Source: Syntrophaceae bacterium
GTDB taxonomy: Bacteria; Desulfobacterota; Syntrophia; Syntrophales; PHBD01
Direction: 5' to 3'
DNA length: 64,000 nucleotides
Assembly (NCBI GenBank): GCA_013177825.1
Contig: JABLXX010000004.1
Span: forward strand, 101,990 to 165,989
The notes under the pieces are model-generated. The model was not told where the DNA came from. It saw only the letters and a list, made by a program, of their open reading frames with translations, and made no database searches. How positions within the stretch are numbered: the first letter of the stretch is position 1; the number at the start of each line of letters is the position of its first letter. Shown in pieces: positions 28,038 to 38,234 of the stretch. Made by a program: the position numbers and the translations under genes.

Positions 28038-28844
28038 ATGGGCGACATGACAAAACATCCCATCGGCGTGTTCGACTCCGGCGTGGGAGGGCTCACGGTA
28101 GTGCGGGCGCTCATGGAGCGGCTCCCCTTCGAGGGCATCGTCTATTTCGGAGATACCGCCCGGGTTCCCTACGGCGTCAAGTCCGTCGAGACGGTGACCC
28201 AGTACGCCATCGAGATCACGGACTTCCTGCTGAAGAAGGGAGTCAAACTCCTCGTCATCGCCTGCAACACCGTCGCCGCCGTGGCCGGTGACGCCGTGCG
28301 GAGCCGCTCGCCCGTGCCGGTCCTGGACGTCATCGACGCCGGCGCCCGTTCCGCCGTCCGGGAGACACGCTCCCACCATGTCGGCGTCATCGGGACCCCC
28401 GCCACGATCAACAGCAACGCCTATGCCCGGGCCATTCATGCCCTCGATCCGGCGACCCGCATCTTTTCCCAGGCCTGTCCGCTTTTCGTGCCCCTCGTGG
28501 AGGAAGGGTGGCTCGATCACACAGTGACGCGGATCACGGCCAACGAATACCTGAAGCCCGTCCTGGCGGAGCACCTGGACACCCTGGTCCTGGGGTGCAC
28601 CCATTATCCCCTGCTGAAACCACTCCTCGGAGAGATCGCCGGTCCCGATGTTCACCTGGTGGATTCGGGGGAGGCGATGGCGGATGCCACGGCGGACCTC
28701 CTGACGGAGCTTCACCTGGGAAACCCGAGCCGGGAGAAGCCCTCCTATTCCTGCTATGTCAGCGACGTTCCTTTCCGGTTCCAGACCATGGCCGAGCGGT
28801 TTCTCGGCAGGACGATCGGCCACGTCGAGCTGGTGAAACTCTGA
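28038..28844 (+). CDS. murI: glutamate racemase
   Basis: ORF 28038..28844. IGVFDSGVGGLTV, the two catalytic Cys contexts IACNTVAA and LGCTHYPLL. Confidence 0.9.
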   Translation: MGDMTKHPIGVFDSGVGGLTVVRALMERLPFEGIVYFGDTARVPYGVKSVETVTQYAIEITDFLLKKGVKLLVIACNTVAAVAGDAVRSRSPVPVLDVIDAGARSAVRETRSHHVGVIGTPATINSNAYARAIHALDPATRIFSQACPLFVPLVEEGWLDHTVTRITANEYLKPVLAEHLDTLVLGCTHYPLLKPLLGEIAGPDVHLVDSGEAMADATADLLTELHLGNPSREKPSYSCYVSDVPFRFQTMAERFLGRTIGHVELVKL

Positions 28845-30080
28845 ATGATGGAACGGGTCGTTGTCACCGGACTGGGAACCCTCAACGCAACCGCCAAGAG
28901 CGCCCCTGTCTTCGCGCAGGCCCTGCGGGAGGGCCGCTGCGGGATCGGGCCGTTTTCGGTCTTCGATCCCTCGACGTTCCGGACACAGATCGCCGCGGAA
29001 GTGAAGGATTTCAATCCCCGCGACCACATCCCCCGGCCGTACCCGATCAAGCGCATGTCCCGGGCGGACCTTCTCGGATTCGCCGCGACCCTGGAGGCCC
29101 TGCAGGACGCCGGGCTAGCCCCGCTTTCGCCGGTACTGGCGGAGGAGACGGGCGTCGTCATCGGCGGAGGCGGGGGGGGGCTCCTGGAGGGGGAGCGGTT
29201 CTACGGCGAATACCTGCGCACGGAGGGCAGGCTGGCCCGCTTCTCTGCCCTGTCGGCGGTCTACTGCGCCTCATCGGCGGACCGGATCGCGAGCCTCCTG
29301 GGGCTCCGGGGACCCAAGACCACCTTCATGACGGCCTGCTCTTCCGGGGCCACCGCCGTCGGCTACGCCCGGGACCTGATCCGGAGCGGAGCAGCCCCGG
29401 TCGTCATCGCCGGCGGGACCGAGCCCCTCTGCCGCATCACCTACGCCGCTTTCAACGCTCTCCAGGCGGTGGACCCGGAACCCTGCAAGCCCTTCGCCGG
29501 AAACCGGGCGGGTCTTTCCCTGGGAGAGGCGGCGGGGATCCTGGTTCTCGAGTCCCTCGGACACGCCCGGGCCCGGGGGGCCCGGATCTATGCCGAGGTG
29601 CTGGGCTACGGCGTCACCTGCGACGCGCACCACATGACGGCCCCCGACCCGGAGGCCTCCGGGGCGGTCCGGTCGATGCGGGAGGCCCTGCGCGACGCCG
29701 GCGTTTCCGCGGAGCGGGTCGATTACGTCAACGCCCACGGCACCGCCACGCCGGCCAACGATGTCATGGAGAGCCGGGCCATCCGGCACGTCTTCGGCGA
29801 CCGGGCCGGGCGAATCCCCGTCAGCTCCACGAAGTCCATGACGGGCCATACCCTGGGCGCCTCGGGAGCCCTCGAGGCGGTCGCGTCCGTCCTGGCGATC
29901 CGCCACCGGTTCATCCCGCCGACGATCCACTGCACCGTGCCGGATCCCGAATGCGATCTCGACTATGTCACCGAGGGGGCGCGGGAAACGGACCTGGCGG
30001 TGATTCTGTCCAATTCCTTCGCCTTCGGGGGGAACAACACCTCGCTCGTCATCGGGCGGTTCGAAGGAGGGAACGGGTAG
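28845..30080 (+). CDS. beta-ketoacyl synthase (FabF/KAS II-like) with intact Cys-His-His triad
   Basis: ORF 28845..30080. The ATG abuts the murI TGA. Active-site contexts TACSSGATA (Cys), NAHGTATPAND (His), SMTGHTLGASG (His). Confidence 0.85.
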   Translation: MMERVVVTGLGTLNATAKSAPVFAQALREGRCGIGPFSVFDPSTFRTQIAAEVKDFNPRDHIPRPYPIKRMSRADLLGFAATLEALQDAGLAPLSPVLAEETGVVIGGGGGGLLEGERFYGEYLRTEGRLARFSALSAVYCASSADRIASLLGLRGPKTTFMTACSSGATAVGYARDLIRSGAAPVVIAGGTEPLCRITYAAFNALQAVDPEPCKPFAGNRAGLSLGEAAGILVLESLGHARARGARIYAEVLGYGVTCDAHHMTAPDPEASGAVRSMREALRDAGVSAERVDYVNAHGTATPANDVMESRAIRHVFGDRAGRIPVSSTKSMTGHTLGASGALEAVASVLAIRHRFIPPTIHCTVPDPECDLDYVTEGARETDLAVILSNSFAFGGNNTSLVIGRFEGGNG

Positions 30081-30081
30081 C

Positions 30082-31317
30082 ATGGACCGGCGCGTCGCGA
30101 TCACCGGCATCGGCATCGTCTCCCCCCTCAGCTCCGGCCGCGAGGCCTTCGGGAAGGCCCTTTTTGCCGGGGAAAGCGGGATCGCCCCCGTGACCGCATT
30201 TCCCGTGGAGGCGCTTTCCTGCCGGCTGGCGGCGGAAATCCGCGATTTCCAGGCGAGGGACTTCATCTCCGTCAAAAACCTCCGGCGCATGGACCGCCTC
30301 TCCGCCGTGGCGACGGCGGCGGCCCGGATGGCCTTGGACGACGCGGGGCTCGCCGTAACGCCGGCCAACCGGGACCGCACGGGCATGATCCTGGGGACGG
30401 CCTGGGGCGGCACCGACGTGACGGTCTCCTTTGCCCGGGTCCTGGTGACGGAGGGACCCGGATCCGCCAACCCGATCCTCGTGCCCAACGTGGTCATGAA
30501 CGCCCCGGCGGGGCATGCCTCCATCGAGCTGGGGTTCCGGGGGATCAATACGACGGTCAACCACTACGCCGTCTCGGCGGAGTCGGCCCTGGCCTACGGC
30601 GCTCAGGAGATCCGGCGGGGCGCCGCGGACGTCCTTCTGGCCGGCGGGGCCGACGTCCTGGCCCCTTTCTACTTCGAGTCCCTGACGCGCTTCAAGGCGC
30701 TGTCGCCCCTCCAGGGCGGGGGCTCCGAAGGCGCCCGCCCCTTCGACCTCCGGCGGAACGGGCCGGTGGCAGGGGAGGGCTGCGGGATCCTCTGCCTGGA
30801 GCCGCTGGATGCGGCCCGGGAGCGGGGCGCAACCGTCCATGCGGAGATCGTGGGGCAGGGCATGGCCTCTTCGCCGGCGCCCATGACCGGCTGGCCGGAG
30901 GACCCGCGGGGCCTTGTCCTGGCGGTCCGCCGGGCGCTCCGGTCCGCCGGTTGCGGGCCGGAGGACGTGGACGCCGTCTTCGCCGCCGCCAGCGGCGGCC
31001 TTCAGCCGGACCTCCTGGAGGCGGAAGGGCTGGAGCAGGTGTTCGGGCCAGGTGGAAAGATGCCGCTCGTGACGGCCCTGAAGGGCGCCCTCGGGGAGAG
31101 CTTCACCTCCGGGGGGATGCGGGCGGCGGCCTTGGCCCTGGCGCTCCGGGACGGCGCCGTGCCCCCCACCCTGGGACTGGAAGACCCGGTCCGGCCACTG
31201 AATATCGTGACGGGGCCGTCCGTCCGGGCGAATGTGCAAAGAGGACTCCTGAACGGGATCTCCCACGGGGGGAGCTACGTCTCCCTTCTGTTTTCCAATA
31301 TCGGGGAAGAATCATGA
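30082..31317 (+). CDS. ketosynthase-fold protein lacking the catalytic triad (chain-length-factor/KS-beta-like partner)
   Basis: ORF 30082..31317, 1 nt after the KS stop. Aligned by eye to the upstream KS: ACSSG becomes AVSAE, AHGTAT becomes AAASGG, TGHTLG becomes KGALGE. Cys, His and His are all replaced. Confidence 0.75.
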   Translation: MDRRVAITGIGIVSPLSSGREAFGKALFAGESGIAPVTAFPVEALSCRLAAEIRDFQARDFISVKNLRRMDRLSAVATAAARMALDDAGLAVTPANRDRTGMILGTAWGGTDVTVSFARVLVTEGPGSANPILVPNVVMNAPAGHASIELGFRGINTTVNHYAVSAESALAYGAQEIRRGAADVLLAGGADVLAPFYFESLTRFKALSPLQGGGSEGARPFDLRRNGPVAGEGCGILCLEPLDAARERGATVHAEIVGQGMASSPAPMTGWPEDPRGLVLAVRRALRSAGCGPEDVDAVFAAASGGLQPDLLEAEGLEQVFGPGGKMPLVTALKGALGESFTSGGMRAAALALALRDGAVPPTLGLEDPVRPLNIVTGPSVRANVQRGLLNGISHGGSYVSLLFSNIGEES

Positions 31318-32837
31318 ACATCGGAGAATGGATTGAAAAGAGGGCCTTTACCCACCCGGACCGGGAATTCCTGAAGGACGGTGAGCGGGCCTTCAGCAAC
31401 CGGGCCTTCAACGAGCGGGTCAACCGGACGGCCCGGGCGCTCCAGAACCTGGACATCGTGAAGGGCGAGCGCCTGGCGCTCATCATGGGCAACACGAGCG
31501 AATTCCTGGAGATCTTCTTCGCCTGCGCCAAGACGGGGGCCATCCTGGTGCCTGTGAACTACAGACTGGCGGGGCCGGAGATCGAATACATCCTCCGCGA
31601 CTCGGCCCCCCGGGGGCTCGTCTACGCCGTCGAGTTTGCCGAAAAGGCGGCTCCCCTCAAGGAGCCGGGCCTGGGGATCCGCCACTGGATCCGCCACGGC
31701 GGAGAGCCCCTTCCCGGGGAATCGCTCCTGTCGGACCTGACGGCGGCCGAGTCGGATGGCGAGCCAAGGCCGATGGAGGAAGTGACGGGCGAGGACCCCC
31801 TCTTCATTATGTACACCTCCGGAACGACGGGCGATCCGAAAGGGGCCGTCCTGACCCATGGGAACATCCTCTTCGGGGCCGTCCATTCCCTCATCGGCTA
31901 CGGCGTCAACCGGACCTACCGGTCCCTCGTCGTGGCGCCCCTCTTCCACATCGGCGCCCTGGCGGCGTCGGTCACGCCGGTCATCTACGCCGGCGGCTCC
32001 GTCGTCCTGTCGGGGTTCTTCAACGCCTCGGAAGTCCTCCTGACCATTGTCCGGGAGCGGATCAACTACATGTTCGCCGTCCCCGTCATGTTCCAGATCA
32101 TGGCGGACACGCCCGAGTGGGCCGGGGCGGACCTGTCCCACGTCCACTTCTTCATTTCCGGGGGGGCGCCGATCCCCCTCCCGGTCATCCGGAAGTACCA
32201 GGACGAGAAGGGGATCGGCTTCGTCCAGGGCTACGCCCTCACGGAGACGGGGCGGCTCACGTCGCTGGACCTGGAGGACGCCGTCCGGAAGGCCGGGTCC
32301 GTGGGCAAGGAGGTCTTCCACGTGCGGCTCCGCATCGTCGACGAGGAAGACCGGGACGTCGCCCCCGGGGAGCCCGGGGAGATCGTCGTGAAAGGTCCCA
32401 ATGTCTTCTCCGGCTACTGGCGGAAGCCGAAGGAAACTGCGGAGGCCAAGAAAGGCGGCTGGTTCCGGACGGGCGACATGGGGCGGCGGGACGAGGACGG
32501 ATTTCTCTACATCATCGGCCGCAAGGTGGAGATGATCATCTCCTCCGGGGAGAACATCTACCCCGCCGAGGTGGAGCGGGCGATCCAGTCCCTCCCGGCG
32601 GTGAAGGAAGCGGCGGCCGTGGGCATGCCGGACCCGAAGCGGGGAGAGGTGGTGGCGGCCTTCGTGCTGCTCAGGGAGGGCGAGGCTGTGACGGAGGAGG
32701 ACATCCTGGCAGGGCTCCAGGGGAAGATCGCCCCCTTCAAGATGCCGAAGCGGATTTTCTTCGTCGACTCCTTCCCGAGGAATCCCGGCGGCAAGATCCT
32801 CAAGCGCATCCTCCAGAAGCGCCTGCGGGAGGGATGA
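31314..32837 (+). CDS. acyl-CoA synthetase / acyl-adenylate-forming ligase (AMP-binding family)
   Basis: 3' part of ORF 30951..32837. ATG 31314 overlaps the upstream stop (ATGA). AMP motif MYTSGTTGDPKGA, TGDMGRRDEDGFLYIIGR, C-terminal PRNPGGKILKR. Confidence 0.85.
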   Translation: MNIGEWIEKRAFTHPDREFLKDGERAFSNRAFNERVNRTARALQNLDIVKGERLALIMGNTSEFLEIFFACAKTGAILVPVNYRLAGPEIEYILRDSAPRGLVYAVEFAEKAAPLKEPGLGIRHWIRHGGEPLPGESLLSDLTAAESDGEPRPMEEVTGEDPLFIMYTSGTTGDPKGAVLTHGNILFGAVHSLIGYGVNRTYRSLVVAPLFHIGALAASVTPVIYAGGSVVLSGFFNASEVLLTIVRERINYMFAVPVMFQIMADTPEWAGADLSHVHFFISGGAPIPLPVIRKYQDEKGIGFVQGYALTETGRLTSLDLEDAVRKAGSVGKEVFHVRLRIVDEEDRDVAPGEPGEIVVKGPNVFSGYWRKPKETAEAKKGGWFRTGDMGRRDEDGFLYIIGRKVEMIISSGENIYPAEVERAIQSLPAVKEAAAVGMPDPKRGEVVAAFVLLREGEAVTEEDILAGLQGKIAPFKMPKRIFFVDSFPRNPGGKILKRILQKRLREG

Positions 32838-33979
32838 TGGAGATCCTGCCCTGGACCGGTGAGCACCGGGCCTTCCGCGAGGAATTCCGCGGGTTCCTCG
32901 CCAGAGAGGTCATTCCCTTCGTGGACCGGTGGGAGGCCGACGGCATCGTTCCCCGGTCGGCCTGGCTGGCCATGGGCGCAGCAGGGTTTCTCTGCACCGA
33001 CGTGCCCCGGGAGTACGGCGGCCGCGGCCTCGATTTCCTCCATTCCGTCATCGTCGTGGACGAGATGGCGAAGACCAACTGCTACGGTCTCTCCCCGCGG
33101 CTCCACAGCAACGTGGTCGTCCCCTACATCACGTCCTTCGCCTCCGAAGAGCTCAAGCACCGCTACCTGCCAGGCTGCATCCGGGGCGAGATCGTCACCG
33201 GCATCGCCATGACGGAGCCCCACGCCGGGAGCGACGTGGCGGCCATCCGGACAAGTGCCGTGGAGGACGGCGATTTCGTGGTCCTGAACGGCCAGAAGAC
33301 CTTCATCTCCAACGGAACCAACGGCGACCTCTTCGTGGTGGCCGCGAAGGACCCGGCGACGGAGGACCCCCACCGGGCCGTGGACATCTACCTGGTGGAG
33401 GGGAAGACCCCGGGCTTCGAAAGGGGGCGCCGCCTGAAGAAGGCGGGCTGGCACAGCCAGGACACGACGGAGATCTTCTTCCACGACTGCCGGGTGCCCC
33501 TGACCCACCGCCTCGGCGGGAAGGGCTCGGGGTTCAAGAACCTGATGCGGCACCTCCAGCCGGAGCGCCTTGTCGTGGCCATCGGCGCCGTCTCCGCGGC
33601 GGAGTGGGTCCTGGAGCACACGATTTCCCACGTGAAGAAGACGGACGTCTCGGGGACGGCCCTGTCGTCGTTCCAGCACGTCCGCTTCGAGATCGCCGAA
33701 ATGGCTACGGAGGTCCAAATCGGCCGGACCTTCGTGGACAAGCTCATCGCCGACCACATCGAGGGGAAGAACGTCGTCCGGGAGGTCTCCATGGCCAAGT
33801 GGTGGACCACCGAGACGGCCTGGCGGATCGCCGACCGGTGCCTCCAGCTCCACGGCCGCCTGGGCCTCGACGAGAGCGGCCCCCTCGCCCGGGCCTGGCG
33901 GGACCTCCGCGTCACCCGCATCCTCGCCGGCACCAATGAAATCATGAAAGGCATCATCGCCCGGATGACGGGGATATAA
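32834..33979 (+). CDS. acyl-CoA dehydrogenase
   Basis: 3' part of ORF 32117..33979. ATG 32834 overlaps the ligase stop (ATGA). TGIAMTEPHAGSDVAA, QKTFISNG, C-terminal RILAGTNEIMKGIIAR. Confidence 0.85.
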   Translation: MMEILPWTGEHRAFREEFRGFLAREVIPFVDRWEADGIVPRSAWLAMGAAGFLCTDVPREYGGRGLDFLHSVIVVDEMAKTNCYGLSPRLHSNVVVPYITSFASEELKHRYLPGCIRGEIVTGIAMTEPHAGSDVAAIRTSAVEDGDFVVLNGQKTFISNGTNGDLFVVAAKDPATEDPHRAVDIYLVEGKTPGFERGRRLKKAGWHSQDTTEIFFHDCRVPLTHRLGGKGSGFKNLMRHLQPERLVVAIGAVSAAEWVLEHTISHVKKTDVSGTALSSFQHVRFEIAEMATEVQIGRTFVDKLIADHIEGKNVVREVSMAKWWTTETAWRIADRCLQLHGRLGLDESGPLARAWRDLRVTRILAGTNEIMKGIIARMTGI

Positions 33980-34049: not shown

Positions 34050-35159
34050 ATGAACGTCCGGATCGTCAACCTTCACCCGGGGTGCGAGAACAACGCCCTG
34101 TTTCTTTCCCGGGCCCGGCGCTACTTCGAGTTGAACGGCCACCGGGCCGGTGGCGAGAGGGAGGCGGACCTGGTGTTTGTGGGGGCCTGCGTCGTGACCG
34201 ACTGGATGCGCCGGCGGTGCGAGGAAGCCATCGCCGGGGCGATGCACAGCCATCCGCTGGCTCATTTCGTTGTCTTCGGCTGCCTGGCGGCCTTTCCCGG
34301 GGAACTGCAGGCGTGCCTCGGCGGGGAGGCCGCCCGGATCCGGTTCATCCCGTACGGAGCGAGCGCCGAACTGGACGCCCTCGTCGGGGCGCGCGTTCCT
34401 TTCGAGACCGTCCACGTCTCCCGTCTTGAAGGGCACCGTCCCTACCAGCCCCGCATGGGGCCGGATGACCGCTACCTCCTGATCTCCCAAGGTTGTGTCA
34501 ACGACTGCAGCTACTGCAGCATCCGGCTGGCCAAGGGGCGGGTCCGTAGCCGGCCGGCGGAGGAGATCGAGGCGGATGCCCGCGAACTGTACGATCAGGG
34601 CGTCCGGACCGTGACCCTGCTCGCGGACGACTGCGGCTCCTACGGCCTCGACCGGGACGACGACCTTCCGGGGCTGCTTGGCCGGATCTGCAGGATCGCC
34701 CCGGACCTCCGGATCAAGCTCTACACGGTGTTCCCGGCCCTGTTCCTGCAATACGCCGACCGGCTGGCACCGTTTTTCGCCGCCGGGCGCATCCCCTACG
34801 TCTGCCTGCCCGCCCAATCCGCATCCCCGCGCATCCTGGACCTGATGAACCGCCGCTACGACCCCGGCCGCCTGGCGGATGCGGTTCTCCGGCTCCGTGC
34901 CCTCGATCCCGGCGTCTTCGTCTATTCCCACTTCATCTTTGCCTTCCCAACGGAGACCTGGGAGGAGCTTGCGGAAAGCGTCTCCTTCGCCGGACTCTTC
35001 GATCACTCCGTCTTCATCGGCTATGGTGGAAACCGGGTGACCCGGGCGGCGGCCCTGGCCTCCCGGTGCGACGACGCCGACCGGCAGGCAAAAGCGGATT
35101 ACCTGGGGCGACTGGTGGCGGAAGGAAAGCTCGCCTCGTTCGTGGTGCCCTATGCCTGA
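34050..35159 (+). CDS. radical SAM protein, methylthiotransferase-like (UPF0004 N-domain + rSAM core) without TRAM domain, paralogue A
   Basis: ORF 34050..35159, 369 aa, RBS GAGGGAG. N-terminal Cys at 12, 47 and 78 (MTTase spacing). Core GCVNDCSYCSIRLAKGRVRSR. The protein ends about 30 aa after the barrel. Confidence 0.75.
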   Translation: MNVRIVNLHPGCENNALFLSRARRYFELNGHRAGGEREADLVFVGACVVTDWMRRRCEEAIAGAMHSHPLAHFVVFGCLAAFPGELQACLGGEAARIRFIPYGASAELDALVGARVPFETVHVSRLEGHRPYQPRMGPDDRYLLISQGCVNDCSYCSIRLAKGRVRSRPAEEIEADARELYDQGVRTVTLLADDCGSYGLDRDDDLPGLLGRICRIAPDLRIKLYTVFPALFLQYADRLAPFFAAGRIPYVCLPAQSASPRILDLMNRRYDPGRLADAVLRLRALDPGVFVYSHFIFAFPTETWEELAESVSFAGLFDHSVFIGYGGNRVTRAAALASRCDDADRQAKADYLGRLVAEGKLASFVVPYA

Positions 35160-36318
35160 TCCCGCAGCGGCCCCGAAGCCCGGCATCTTCGTCTTCAACC
35201 CGAGCCGGCGCTGCGCCCCCGGCGCATACCTCTTTACCCAGGCGGTCCGCTTCTTCCTCCTGAACGGCCACCCCCTGGTGCGGGACGTCCGGGACGCCGG
35301 GATCATCCTCGTGAACTCCTGCTGCGTCACGGAGGGAAAGATCGGCACGTCCCTGGCGGCGCTCGAGACGGCCAGGAGTCACGGGAAGGGGAAGAGCGTG
35401 GTTCTCCTGGGCTGCCTGGCCGGCCTGCCGGACACCCCGTTCGATCCGGAGGGGGTGTTGTGCGTCGGGCCGAAGGACCTGGACCTTCTCGATACGCATT
35501 TTCCAAACCGGATCCCTGTCCGGGCGGCCGCGGCGAGCCGCCTGCCGCCGGAGTTCTTCCTGCCGGGACAGCACCTCGGTCCGCAGGACGCCTTCCTCTT
35601 CATCGGCCAGGGATGCGTGAACGCCTGTTCCTACTGCAACATCCGCCGCGCGAAGGGAGGCCTGTCGAGCGTGCCCGTGGAGTCGATCCTCTCCCGGGCC
35701 CGCAGCGGGCTCGAACGAGGCGTGCGGGAATTCGCCCTGCTGGCGGATGACTGCGCCAGCTACGGCCGGGACATCGGGAGCGACCTGGTCGATCTGATCG
35801 GGGGGCTCCTCGGGCTGGACGGCGGCTTGTCGCTCAAGCTGAGCTACGTGTTCCCATCCTTCGTGGAGGATCGCTTCGACGATCTGGCGCCGCTCTTTGC
35901 CACCGGGCGCATCCGCTACGCGAACATCCCGCTCCAGTCGGGCTCGCAGCGCATCCTGGACCTGATGAACCGGCGCTATCCCATCGGCCGGGTCGTGGAG
36001 CGCGTGCGACGGCTCCGGGAGATCGCGCCCCGGTCGCTCCTCTGTACCCATGTCCTCATCAATTTTCCCACGGAGACCCGGGAGGACTTCCGGGCGTCCC
36101 TGGCCCTGGCGGACGCCTTCCGCGACACGTACTTTCTCCACTATTCGGACAACCGGGGGACTCCCGCGGCCCGGCTGGAGCCGAAGGTCCCGCCGGAGGA
36201 GGCGCTGCGGCGGCTGGACGCCGCCTCGGACTTCGTGAACGCCCGGGGGCGGGGGGTGGTGATCCGGGATTTCGACTGCGATCTGCCCTATAACGTCAGC
36301 CGGGATCGGGGTGCCTGA
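35152..36318 (+). CDS. radical SAM protein, methylthiotransferase-like without TRAM domain, paralogue B
   Basis: ORF 35152..36318, 388 aa, with an 8-nt overlap on A. N-terminal Cys at 21, 57 and 88. Core GCVNACSYCNIRRAKGG. Shares LLADDCxSYG, ILDLMNRRY and FPTET with paralogue A. Confidence 0.75.
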   Translation: MPDPAAAPKPGIFVFNPSRRCAPGAYLFTQAVRFFLLNGHPLVRDVRDAGIILVNSCCVTEGKIGTSLAALETARSHGKGKSVVLLGCLAGLPDTPFDPEGVLCVGPKDLDLLDTHFPNRIPVRAAAASRLPPEFFLPGQHLGPQDAFLFIGQGCVNACSYCNIRRAKGGLSSVPVESILSRARSGLERGVREFALLADDCASYGRDIGSDLVDLIGGLLGLDGGLSLKLSYVFPSFVEDRFDDLAPLFATGRIRYANIPLQSGSQRILDLMNRRYPIGRVVERVRRLREIAPRSLLCTHVLINFPTETREDFRASLALADAFRDTYFLHYSDNRGTPAARLEPKVPPEEALRRLDAASDFVNARGRGVVIRDFDCDLPYNVSRDRGA

Positions 36319-37834
36319 CATGGCCCTGCCGCTCATCAAGGTCGTCCAACTCACCCTGACCAACCGGTGCCAGTTGAGCTGCCAACACTGCGGGGTGGCG
36401 GAGCTCAGAAACGTCATGCCCGGCGAGCTGACCCTGGAGCAGATCGACGATGTCTTCCGGGACCTCCGGCTGGCCGGCTGCCTGGTGGTGGATCTCTTCG
36501 GCGGCGAGCCGACGCTCAGGAAGGACCTGTTCGAGATCATCCGGCGCGGAAAGGCCTCCGGATTCATGATGTCCCTGGAGACGAACGGCTGGCTCCTGGA
36601 CGGGGCCTTCGTCCGGGAGCTGGAAGCGGCGGGCCTGAACCAGATCTACCTCAGCCTGGACGATTCCCGCCCGGAGGAGCATGACCGGCGGAGGGGAAGG
36701 GCGGGGAGCTTCGAGCGGGCCGTCCGGGCGTTGGAGCTGGGGGCGGCGACCTCCATGGCCGTGCATGTCTCCATCGTGCCGCAGACGGCCGAATTCTTCA
36801 CCGGCGGTGCCATGAACCGGTTCATGGCCTTCGTCCTGGCGAAGGGGGCCGAAAAGGTGCGGCTCCTCCTGCCCCGCTTTTCCGGCCGGTCGGCCCATCC
36901 AGACGGGACTCCCTTTGCGGCCCGCCGGGAGCGGGATCTCTTCGCCTGCATCGCCCCGGAGTACGCCCCCCACATTTACGTTCACACGCCGGGAACGCCG
37001 TTGGGAGAGACGAATAAGTGCACGGCCAAGAACATCTTCTGCCACATCATGAGCAACGGCTGGATCGCCCCCTGCCCGTACCTTCCCCTCGTCTTTGGCG
37101 ATGCGACCCGGGAATCAGTCGTAGAGGTGTTCGAGCGGATGCAGTCCCATCCGCTGGTTCGGCTGGGCGGCGACACCTGCCCGATGCGGAATCCCGACTA
37201 CATCGAGGAGCACATCCGGCCGATGGGCACGGGACGTCCCTTCTATCCCGTTGCCTCGAAAAACCAGGTGGATCTCGGCGCCCCCTGCCCGCCGGACTGC
37301 CGCGGCTGCGATGCCGCCGGAAGGCCGTCGCGCAGGCCCGCCGAGGCGGTGATCCGCGACCTTCAGGCCGTGGACCCGAACTACCGGAGCATCGAGTTCT
37401 ACGGCGGGGACGCGCTGCTCCGGGCCGATCTGATCGGCATCCTTGGCCGCGTTCCCCCGGGCATGGATATCCGCCTCTGGACCACGGGAAGCTGGCTGCC
37501 GGAGGATCCGGGGTTCCGGGAACAGTTACGTTCCTTTCCCGTCCGCGCCATCCGGGTGATGATGCCGCTTGGCGAGGCGGGGACACCGGGCGGCCTGGGA
37601 GACGCTCTCGGACGGATCCGGGCCGTGCAGGGGCTGGGCATCCCCATCCATCTGTACGCCCCGGCGGACGCCCCGGCGGAGGCGCACCGGATTGTGGCCG
37701 AAAACGCGGCCCGTCTGGGGGTGGAGCGGATCTATCTCTTCCGCCGGGATCCGGTGTCGCCCCTGTCGAACGCAGTCGCCTGTTTCGGCAGGGCCCTCGG
37801 CCGGGCAAGGCTTGCCTGGGCCGCCCGACCATAA
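36311..37834 (+). CDS. radical SAM protein with SPASM/twitch-like Cys cluster and a C-terminal second CxxxCxxC module
   Basis: ORF 36311..37834 (GTG 36311 overlaps B by 8 nt; alternative ATG 36320). CQLSCQHC plus GGEPTL. Auxiliary CTAKNIFCHIMSNGWIAPCPY...GDTCP. A second CPPDCRGC (nt 37286-37309) is followed by YGGDALL. Confidence 0.75.
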   Translation: MPDMALPLIKVVQLTLTNRCQLSCQHCGVAELRNVMPGELTLEQIDDVFRDLRLAGCLVVDLFGGEPTLRKDLFEIIRRGKASGFMMSLETNGWLLDGAFVRELEAAGLNQIYLSLDDSRPEEHDRRRGRAGSFERAVRALELGAATSMAVHVSIVPQTAEFFTGGAMNRFMAFVLAKGAEKVRLLLPRFSGRSAHPDGTPFAARRERDLFACIAPEYAPHIYVHTPGTPLGETNKCTAKNIFCHIMSNGWIAPCPYLPLVFGDATRESVVEVFERMQSHPLVRLGGDTCPMRNPDYIEEHIRPMGTGRPFYPVASKNQVDLGAPCPPDCRGCDAAGRPSRRPAEAVIRDLQAVDPNYRSIEFYGGDALLRADLIGILGRVPPGMDIRLWTTGSWLPEDPGFREQLRSFPVRAIRVMMPLGEAGTPGGLGDALGRIRAVQGLGIPIHLYAPADAPAEAHRIVAENAARLGVERIYLFRRDPVSPLSNAVACFGRALGRARLAWAARP

Positions 37835-37879: not shown

Positions 37880-37975
37880 ATGGCGCGAATTCACGGGACG
37901 ATGCCCGATTATGCCGCAAGCCGGGGGAATTTTTCATTGTATTTTGGGAGATGGATAGGTATACGGCCATACTAA
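37880..37975 (+). CDS. candidate 31-codon micro-ORF (MARIHGTMPDYAASRGNFSLYFGRWIGIRPY) downstream of the radical-SAM trio
   Basis: Not on the ORF track (too short). ATG 37880 lies 4 nt after a strong AGGAGGAGG (37867-37875), stop TAA 37973-37975. Aromatic-rich, with locally low GC. Coding status is unproven. Confidence 0.3.
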   Translation: MARIHGTMPDYAASRGNFSLYFGRWIGIRPY

Positions 37976-38057: not shown

Positions 38058-38234
38058 ATGCAGGAAATCTTGACGGCCGTCACCTACCTGTTGGTCTGGC
38101 TCCTCTGCGAGCGGGTCATCGGGATCGAGAGCGGACTGGTGAATCTGGTTGTCTCGCTGGGGGCGGCCGTGGGCGTTTACGTCTTCATCGCCGTCCGGGA
38201 CCACCGCAAGAAGAAAGAAAACGGAGAGCCCTAG
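38058..38234 (+). CDS. candidate 58-aa two-helix membrane micro-protein
   Basis: Not on the ORF track (<60 aa). ATG 38058 lies 7 nt after GGGGAGGGAAGG. MQEILTAVTYLLVWLLCERVIGIESGLVNLVVSLGAAVGVYVFIAVRDHRKKKENGEP has two hydrophobic helices and a basic tail. Codon usage matches the host. Confidence 0.45.
   Translation: MQEILTAVTYLLVWLLCERVIGIESGLVNLVVSLGAAVGVYVFIAVRDHRKKKENGEP

Follow-up and report, generated by a model that had tools for sequence, protein, structure and literature searches.

A radical-SAM protein of a Syntrophaceae bacterium combining a canonical core, a twitch-type domain and a predicted second radical-SAM-type barrel, and its MiaB-like partners

The DNA analysed here, 64,000 nucleotides of a Syntrophaceae bacterium (assembly GCA_013177825.1, contig JABLXX010000004.1, positions 101,990 to 165,989; hereafter the window), carries at positions 36311-37834 a gene whose product consists of three modules: a core of the radical S-adenosylmethionine (radical-SAM) type, a twitch-type domain and a second radical-SAM-type barrel, which we call module 3. 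The reading that we favour, with a probability of about 0.55, is that of a three-module and probably three-cluster enzyme, in which module 3 would play an auxiliary part and which would operate in a complex with MiaB-like enzymes encoded beside it. The features of this gene and of its MiaB-like neighbours all lie on the + strand, and positions are those of the window.

The two-core gene is a stop-free open reading frame (ORF) with a translation of 507 amino acids (aa). The ORF starts with GTG; however, since the homologues begin at the equivalent of M4, the ATG at 36320 (MALPL...), 9 nt downstream, is probably the true start. A search covering 5.8 billion proteins yielded about 80 full-length relatives of about 510 aa, which come from NCBI, JGI, ENA and Logan assemblies, and in a scan of species-representative genomes full-length copies were confined to metagenome-assembled genomes (MAGs). 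The nearest of them, 89-93% identical, come from Syntrophaceae MAGs; further copies were found in MAGs labelled Syntrophales, Geobacter/Geobacteraceae, Desulfatiglandaceae, Ignavibacteria, Sandaracinaceae, Binatia and others, and one archaeal copy in a Methanobacteriota MAG. It could be argued that such a protein results from adjacent genes joined by a frameshift or a MAG misassembly, or that its second motif arose by chance, as the assembly has a high guanine-plus-cytosine content, is divided into 25 contigs, and long spurious ORFs are frequent in it. Against this, the same single-ORF layout is shared by about 80 proteins whose NCBI, JGI, ENA and Logan sources are independent; it is also found in MAGs of several bacterial groups and in one archaeon; the motifs are invariant, and an AlphaFold2 model of the full-length protein, built from the family alignment, forms one compact chain (predicted local distance difference test, pLDDT, 88.1; predicted template modelling score, pTM, 0.90). 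The number of homologues, the invariance of the motifs and the taxonomic spread rule out an artefact of either kind with near certainty.

Core 1 (residues ~10-195, 36338-36895) is, judging by its sequence, fully canonical and is predicted to cleave SAM. The Pfam model PF04055 (Radical_SAM) matches residues 15-143 with an E value of 5.6e-27 and 95.4 bits against a cut-off of 29.5, and Foldseek and PDB matches point in the same direction. The Cys triad C20-QLS-C24-QH-C27 is encoded at 36368-36391 and the GGEPTL motif (residues 64-69) at 36500-36517, or, with the following Arg, at 36500-36520; ETNG, YLSLDD and HVSxVP complete the set of motifs. Conservation, here and below, was counted in an alignment (A2) of 75 full-length homologues reaching down to 36% identity. 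In this alignment C27 is Cys in all 75 sequences, C20 and C24 are Cys in all 74 sequences that cover them (one has a gap), and GGEPTLR is invariant, as are ETNG, YLSLDD and HVSxVP. The CxxxCxxC and GGE motifs, together with a Pfam score over the gathering threshold, place core 1 within the radical-SAM superfamily.

Core 1 is followed by a predicted twitch-type auxiliary-cluster domain (37019-37180) built around four cysteines, C237, C244-x5-G-x4-C255 and C290, arranged as C237-TAKNIF-C244-x10-C255...GDT-C290 and invariant in the 75 homologues; the AlphaFold model places a beta-hairpin at residues 243-253. The Pfam SPASM model (PF13186) reached 15.1 bits on residues 237-277, below its cut-off of 21.5, and the CxxCx5Cx3C half of a SPASM domain was not found in residues 255-310. 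As there are four cysteines only and this second half is missing, the domain is assigned as a four-Cys twitch rather than a full SPASM domain, with one predicted [4Fe-4S] cluster. An earlier note, made from the letters of the window, had taken the N-terminal two thirds of the protein for a standard SPASM-type maturase. The core and the Cys motifs are indeed present, but the SPASM domain is incomplete and of the twitch type. All the motifs listed in that note, namely CQLSCQHC, GGEPTL, CTAKNIFC-x10-C...GDTC, CPPDCRGC and IEFYGGDALLRADL, were found where it had located them.

Module 3 occupies residues ~316-507 (about 190 aa, 37256-37831), and both sequence comparison and modelling identify it as a real radical-SAM-type beta/alpha barrel, not an unrelated domain. 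When residues 1-194 were compared by BLASTP with residues 310-507, an E value of 1e-7 was obtained and triad aligned with triad and GGEP with GGDA, which agrees with the earlier suggestion that the second module mirrors the first. In hhalign, the C-terminal family profile matched the N-terminal one with 97.3% probability (E=2.4e-11) over 153 columns, residues 318-474 corresponding to 12-183; the similarity thus extends over nearly the whole of core 1, and the description of this region as a truncated half-barrel is not borne out. A profile of the extension only (A3), run against PDB sequences, retrieved the radical-SAM cores of EpeE/YydG (E=9.3e-7), BlsE and GDGT-MAS. The full-length AlphaFold2 model has a regular beta/alpha repeat at residues 319-479 and then a long terminal strand, and the extension modelled alone reached a pLDDT of 85.4. 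Among the best Foldseek matches of the isolated module were the cores of SuiB, NifB, QueE, LipA/LIAS and MiaB, along with generic triosephosphate isomerase (TIM) barrels; with the whole protein as a query, matches to core 1 dominated and were uninformative on the extension. Profile comparison and structure prediction, which had been proposed as a check on this region, both return a radical-SAM-type core, and a partial TIM barrel with a CxxxCxxC loop after beta1 is indicated by hhalign (97-99%), Foldseek and the presence of the triad in 75 of 75 homologues.

The second triad, C326-PPD-C330-RG-C333, can be read in the DNA at 37286-37309. The counterpart of the core 1 GGE in the BLASTP, hhalign and EpeE alignments is GGD (G365, G366 and D367; 37403-37411), which is contained in IEFYGGDALLRADL (residues 361-374). 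The earlier note had named a lack of conservation in homologues as grounds for refuting it, and this was not observed: C326, C330, C333, G365 and G366 are invariant in 75/75 homologues, and at position 367 there is a D in 72 of them and an E in 2. A further invariant element, overlooked in that note, is C491, lying in the sequence N-x-V-A-C-F-G of the C-terminal tail; C491, F492 and G493 (37781-37789) are identical in all 75 sequences, and CFG is kept also in deep-branching members and in fusion proteins. From the topology of the fold, C491 would be located in the loop after the beta6-equivalent strand, on the cluster face of the barrel, and it may possibly cap a module 3 cluster as the fourth ligand or be a reactive Cys. 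Beta-bridges at residues 490 and 493 appear in the full-length model and not in that of the isolated module, which suggests, though weakly, that this tail touches the N-terminal part. Conservation within module 3 centres on the Cys triad, the GG pair, the N487...C491-F-G tail and a few strand-end residues (W390, K415, P445, H447, Y449, P451, G470, E472, R473 and Y475). Two tandem paralogues of the two-core protein were observed in a Marinamargulisbacteria MAG (L027:4463-7413); in one of them, L027a, the triad, GG and CFG have all disappeared, and the other, L027b, has kept the triad and changed GG to GE.

Apart from these positions, module 3 has diverged considerably in the clade to which the protein from the window belongs. 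Stand-alone HxsC-like proteins and the deep-branching members of the family have the near-canonical motifs CNN(N/H)C..C, GGE(P), (T/S)N(G/A)R.F and FS(L/F/P)...(H/F)D, whereas in the clade in question C-x3-C-P-(G/D)-C, GGD, LW(S/T)T(C/G) and (I/V)K(V/L)xLP are found instead. The ribose motif has been lost there, FS(F/L/P) being replaced by LPL with the ribose-contact Ser and Asp positions absent, and the TNG-type motif has changed from (T/S)N(G/A)R to (S/T)T(C/G). The residue preceding the third Cys is G in 36 and D in 33 of the 75 sequences and is never aromatic. Pfam Radical_SAM gives the second core of the window protein 14.3 bits against the cut-off of 29.5. The second core has a much higher rate of evolution than the other parts of the protein: its mean pairwise identity is 48% and 18% of its columns are conserved at 90% or more, as compared with 73% and 53% in core 1 and 74% and 50% in the twitch domain. 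A homologue only 28% identical, fused to a B12-binding radical-SAM domain, was found in a Desulfobacter MAG (L029:5962-8793); its second core looks canonical, with CNNHCSWC, GGEPS and a W before the third Cys. We infer from this pattern of motifs that the second core ancestrally bound SAM and that in the clade represented in the window it was retained chiefly for its cluster. For this clade the evidence leans against the binding of SAM by module 3, and SAM cleavage by it appears doubtful.

The same data have to be considered in terms of a different possibility, namely that module 3 is a second competent radical-SAM site. The protein would then bind two SAM molecules and either produce two 5'-deoxyadenosyl radicals or use the second SAM as a methyl donor. 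One substrate could in this way undergo C-H activation twice, in coordination with the insertion of sulfur by the MiaB-like enzymes. The invariance of a canonically spaced triad and of GG(D/E), the retained barrel fold, and the near-canonical second cores of deep members and of L029 (GGEP, TNG-like, FS; W in L029) are what one would expect of such a site, and the conserved strand-end residues W390, K415, H447, Y449, P451, E472 and R473 suggest a functional pocket. There is also a parallel in HxsB and HxsC, two separate radical-SAM enzymes acting on one substrate (PMC13128918). On the other hand, LPL stands in place of the ribose motif and (S/T)T(C/G) in place of TNG in the clade of the window; all family members checked have G or D before the third Cys; the rate of evolution of module 3 is far above that of core 1, and its scores lie below every curated radical-SAM threshold; and the fourth Cys, itself invariant, could serve as the ligand of the unique iron. 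Moreover, paralogue L027b, with its intact triad and GE in place of GG, suggests that it is the cluster and not SAM that is under constraint, although this is one sequence. We therefore consider a second active site somewhat unlikely, and an auxiliary module 3 remains our preferred interpretation.

The earlier note regarded the extension as a duplication of the first module, and this explanation did not withstand comparison with other radical-SAM proteins. When the extension profile was searched against 1.84 billion representatives, the matches outside the two-core family were HxsC/HxsC4-type radical-SAM proteins, many of which are themselves fusions carrying two to four cores. Module 3 of two deep members, P0088 and L025 (the latter a Binatia locus), matched TIGR03977 at about 2e-17 and about 62 bits, while in the NCBIfam scan no model, TIGR03977 included, matched module 3 of the window protein. 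A hidden Markov model (HMM) was built from seven stand-alone HxsC/HxsC4-like proteins, which were checked for their identity and all score below curated cut-offs. In deep-branching members it gave the second core 93-117 bits and the N-terminal core 43-72 bits (1.8-3 in P0134); in the clade of the window the respective values were 13-49 and 38-68 bits, and in P0001 they were 23.5 and 50.5 bits. By hhalign the extension profile matched the HxsC-like set with 99.2% probability (E=1.6e-19), better than it matched its own N-terminal core. A maximum-likelihood tree of the cores grouped the C-modules in one clade (support 96/88) and the N-modules in another (100/99); these clades were not sisters, and the N clade was nested among HxsC/HxsC4-like sequences. 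On the strength of the HMM scores, the hhalign result and the tree, internal duplication was rejected; these sequence comparisons are better explained by an ancient fusion between distinct radical-SAM lineages. The internal branching orders of the N and C clades agree, indicating that the fusion would be as old as the family and that the modules have co-evolved since.

The two-core gene is accompanied by two genes for MiaB-like radical-SAM proteins, paralogue A (34050-35159) and paralogue B (35152-36318). Each consists of a UPF0004 domain and a radical-SAM core, as recognized by Pfam and NCBIfam. Their TIGR00089 scores are 153.8 bits (A) and 180.9 bits (B) against a cut-off of 251, and in the Pfam and NCBIfam scans no TRAM domain was matched in either, which places both outside the MiaB/RimO families as these are defined. 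Synteny was assessed by tblastn of the window proteins against 40-odd related loci. A TRAM-less MiaB-like gene was adjacent in 16 of the 16 distinct long-form loci with enough flanking sequence, in all three short-form loci and in L027; within the sequence covered, none was seen at L017, which is truncated, or at L029. Of the 16 loci that have an assignable MiaB-like neighbour, 13 carry an A-type gene beside the two-core gene. The order is mostly A, B and two-core gene; B, two-core and A, two-core and A, or A and two-core also occur, and only one MiaB-like gene is present in deep members and in the short forms. At about 321 aa, the short-form relatives stop just before the second core and still adjoin a MiaB-like gene. 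In some lineages the B-type partner is physically joined to the two-core protein: a MiaB-like module is fused to the two-core protein in P0083 (881 aa, a Nanoarchaeota MAG) and P0126 (897 aa), and a further radical-SAM module precedes both in P0125 (1260 aa) and L025 (1295 aa). The last of these is one stop-free ORF from a Binatia MAG (L025:3625-7509) with four CxxxCxxC motifs, in which a radical-SAM module, a MiaB-like module, a His/Asp-rich linker and the two-core protein follow each other; this ORF is the whole enzyme set in one polypeptide. The MiaB-like enzymes are dedicated partners of the two-core protein.

The properties of the partners and of the short forms bear on yet another interpretation of module 3, according to which it is a cluster-less relic, serving as a docking or substrate scaffold, with its cysteines used for Zn, for disulfides or for persulfide relay to the MiaB-like partners. 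Its low overall conservation is in line with this, as is the ability of short-form relatives to do without it; in addition, partners devoid of the substrate-binding TRAM domain must obtain that function elsewhere, and the position of C491 in a tail loop, with its full-length-only beta-bridges, may weakly hint at contact with the N-terminal part. However, the exact CxxxCxxC spacing, invariant throughout the family, fusions and archaeal members included, is a [4Fe-4S] signature within this fold, and three Cys and GG at 75/75 are not what one expects of a relic. The cluster-less relic is thus a very unlikely explanation.

In the mechanism that we propose, core 1 would cleave SAM, and the twitch domain, through C237, C244, C255 and C290, would hold one auxiliary [4Fe-4S] cluster. 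Module 3, derived from the HxsC/HxsC4 lineage, would have joined the protein by fusion in the family's ancestor and have co-evolved with core 1 ever since; it presumably retains a [4Fe-4S] cluster, for which C491 may be the cap, and its role would be mainly auxiliary, in electron relay or in holding a partner or substrate, rather than that of an independent site of SAM cleavage. The enzyme would form a working complex with one or two MiaB-like enzymes of the TRAM-less type, as part of a larger multi-radical-SAM maturation system, the substrate of which is probably a peptide or a small protein. Several points weigh against this proposal. The GG(D/E) motif is the contact with the amino group of SAM, and its invariance is expected of a SAM binder and is not needed for a plain auxiliary cluster. 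Deep relatives and L029 have near-canonical second cores, so the ancestor was probably SAM-binding and the clade of the window may still bind SAM through altered contacts. The fourth-ligand role suggested for C491 is an argument from fold topology alone. Short forms lacking module 3 also pair with MiaB-like genes, and module 3 is thus dispensable for the partnership. Finally, the neighbours that point to a peptide or protein substrate are not present in the window.

These neighbours were identified by clustering of the flanking ORFs across 21 loci. The most frequent was an HxsC4-like radical-SAM protein of about 300 aa (10 loci), followed by a 288-aa protein without a Pfam family (8 loci), DUF3467 proteins that cluster with O-methyltransferase-like ORFs (8 loci, at times with two copies per locus) and a B12-radical-SAM protein (7 loci). 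SecA-like genes were found in four loci and M50-peptidase genes likewise in four, and an internally duplicated protein of 596 aa, to which no family was assigned, stands beside long-form loci in four cases (L001:3714-5504). An M50/HlyD protein is also among the recurrent neighbours of the trio of A, B and two-core genes in other genomes. None of these recurrent accessory neighbours was found within the 64-kb window; however, a group of accessory genes is present in the same genome on contig 12, at 139-149 kb (L063:7155-16848), comprising an HxsC4-like radical-SAM protein, the 288-aa protein (61% identical to the L001 copy), an O-methyltransferase, DUF3467 and an M50-peptidase/HlyD fusion. With the trio in the window and the accessory genes on contig 12, the system looks split between two loci, the trio apparently being half of a larger system for maturation and export. 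By analogy, its make-up resembles that of peptide or protein modification pathways. A homologue of LynF/TruF/PatF-like prenyltransferases (L005:9010-9846; NCBIfam E=5e-32, below the cut-off) was seen next to a short-form locus. Giant genes stand beside the radical-SAM clusters of some loci (the L001/L002 flanks; L005:1-1641); their products, as called, are 9,253 aa and 14,908 aa long.

A much bolder scheme may be built on this inventory. Both cores of the enzyme would be active, and it would be the hub of a machine with up to four or five radical-SAM cores, in which two 5'-deoxyadenosyl radicals and cluster-derived sulfur from the MiaB-like partners would furnish a small protein or peptide with a new sulfur-containing cross-link or a methylthio mark, the recurrent candidate substrates being DUF3467 proteins; the product would then be methylated and exported via M50/HlyD. 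The cores would be supplied by the HxsC4-like protein, one or two TRAM-less MiaB-like enzymes, the two-core enzyme and the B12-radical-SAM protein, and in some lineages would be found in a single polypeptide of about 1,300 aa. We regard this scheme, including the roster of its cores, as speculative and, in its full form, improbable.

Upstream of the trio, at 28038-33979, lie genes for an Asp/Glu-racemase-family protein (Pfam Asp_Glu_race), a ketosynthase (KS), a KS-like protein, an acyl ligase and an acyl-CoA dehydrogenase (ACAD). All of these, the racemase-family gene included, are shared only by the close Syntrophaceae relatives L008, L010 and L020, and a link of the KS, KS-like, acyl ligase and ACAD genes with the conserved radical-SAM unit was rejected on this ground. 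Just downstream of the two-core gene, an ORF for a predicted membrane protein of 58 aa (38058-38234, +) is 88-95% identical in five Syntrophaceae relatives and, on account of this conservation, is probably a real gene. Between them, an ORF of 31 aa (37880-37975, +) with the shared motif GNFSL.FG...GIRPY is 58-90% identical in four of the five relatives; in the fifth, L020, only a 13-residue fragment matches. Neither of these small ORFs was found in loci beyond the Syntrophaceae relatives, and the idea that one of them is a universal precursor peptide was rejected on that ground.

A separate question is how this protein relates to radical-SAM enzymes already described, among which the presence of auxiliary clusters is well known. 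For residues 1-305, the best sequence and fold matches are BlsE (7VOB), SkfB (6EFN), MoaA (1TV7), SuiB (5V1Q) and GDGT-MAS (7TOL). This part shares with the MoaA/NifB/PqqE/SkfB group the core with CxxxCxxC, GGEP, TNG and SxDD and the C-terminal Cys-rich auxiliary hairpin. The structures and models of this group aligned with residues 1-305 only, module 3 remaining unmatched in those searches. The nearest curated models for residues 1-305, AhbD (TIGR04545; 101.8 bits against 500) and GeoRSP (TIGR04303), are far below their cut-offs, and the Tes/GDGT-MAS model NF045702 scored 78.9 bits against 450 and covered residues 12-142 only. Membership in Tes/GDGT-MAS, AhbD, NirJ, PqqE and MftC was rejected, as all scores were far below the cut-offs.

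Outside the two-core family, the closest relatives of module 3 are HxsC and HxsC4 (TIGR03977, NF038332). It was shown genetically that HxsB and HxsC mature HxsA, the His-Xaa-Ser repeat effector of the HXS anti-phage system (PMC13128918). HXS uses two radical-SAM cores on one protein substrate, as is proposed for the two-core system. There are also clear differences. HxsC has a C-terminal CxxC second-cluster region, of which module 3 of the window protein keeps one Cys only, and the TIGR03977 cut-off of 267.9 bits is far above the ~62 bits of the deep members; module 3 is accordingly not an HxsC domain in the strict sense. The partners of the two-core protein are MiaB-like enzymes, and neither HxsA nor HxsD was among the recurrent neighbours or in the accessory locus, although no search was aimed at them. 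PADLOC returned generic viperin-level radical-SAM similarity and nothing specific, and an anti-phage defence assignment was rejected.

Paralogues A and B share with MiaB, RimO and MtaB the UPF0004 auxiliary-cluster domain and the radical-SAM core, and TIGR00089 is their best match; they differ in having no TRAM domain, in scoring below the TIGR00089 cut-off and in being dedicated to the two-core protein. Two CxxxCxxC radical-SAM cores in one polypeptide are known from FbiC, the CofG and CofH fusion that acts as F0 synthase, and from MJ0619. Both halves of these proteins are complete, canonical cores that use SAM, and they are not known to have a twitch domain between the cores or MiaB-like partners. 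The two-core protein differs from them in that its second core is degenerate. As multi-core fusions are common among HxsC-type proteins, the two-core architecture is not in itself of a new kind.

We found no description of the two-core family in the literature searched, and there is no curated model for such a conserved family, in which a canonical core and a twitch domain are permanently fused to a second barrel of another lineage and TRAM-less MiaB-like enzymes are obligate partners. Its members form a natural series for the study of the repurposing of a radical-SAM core, which is near-canonical in deep-branching members, degenerate in the clade represented in the window, and lost in the short forms and in one paralogue. 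It also draws attention to a widespread multi-enzyme system of anaerobic sediment and groundwater bacteria and some archaea, whose chemistry likely combines sulfur insertion with radical C-H activation.

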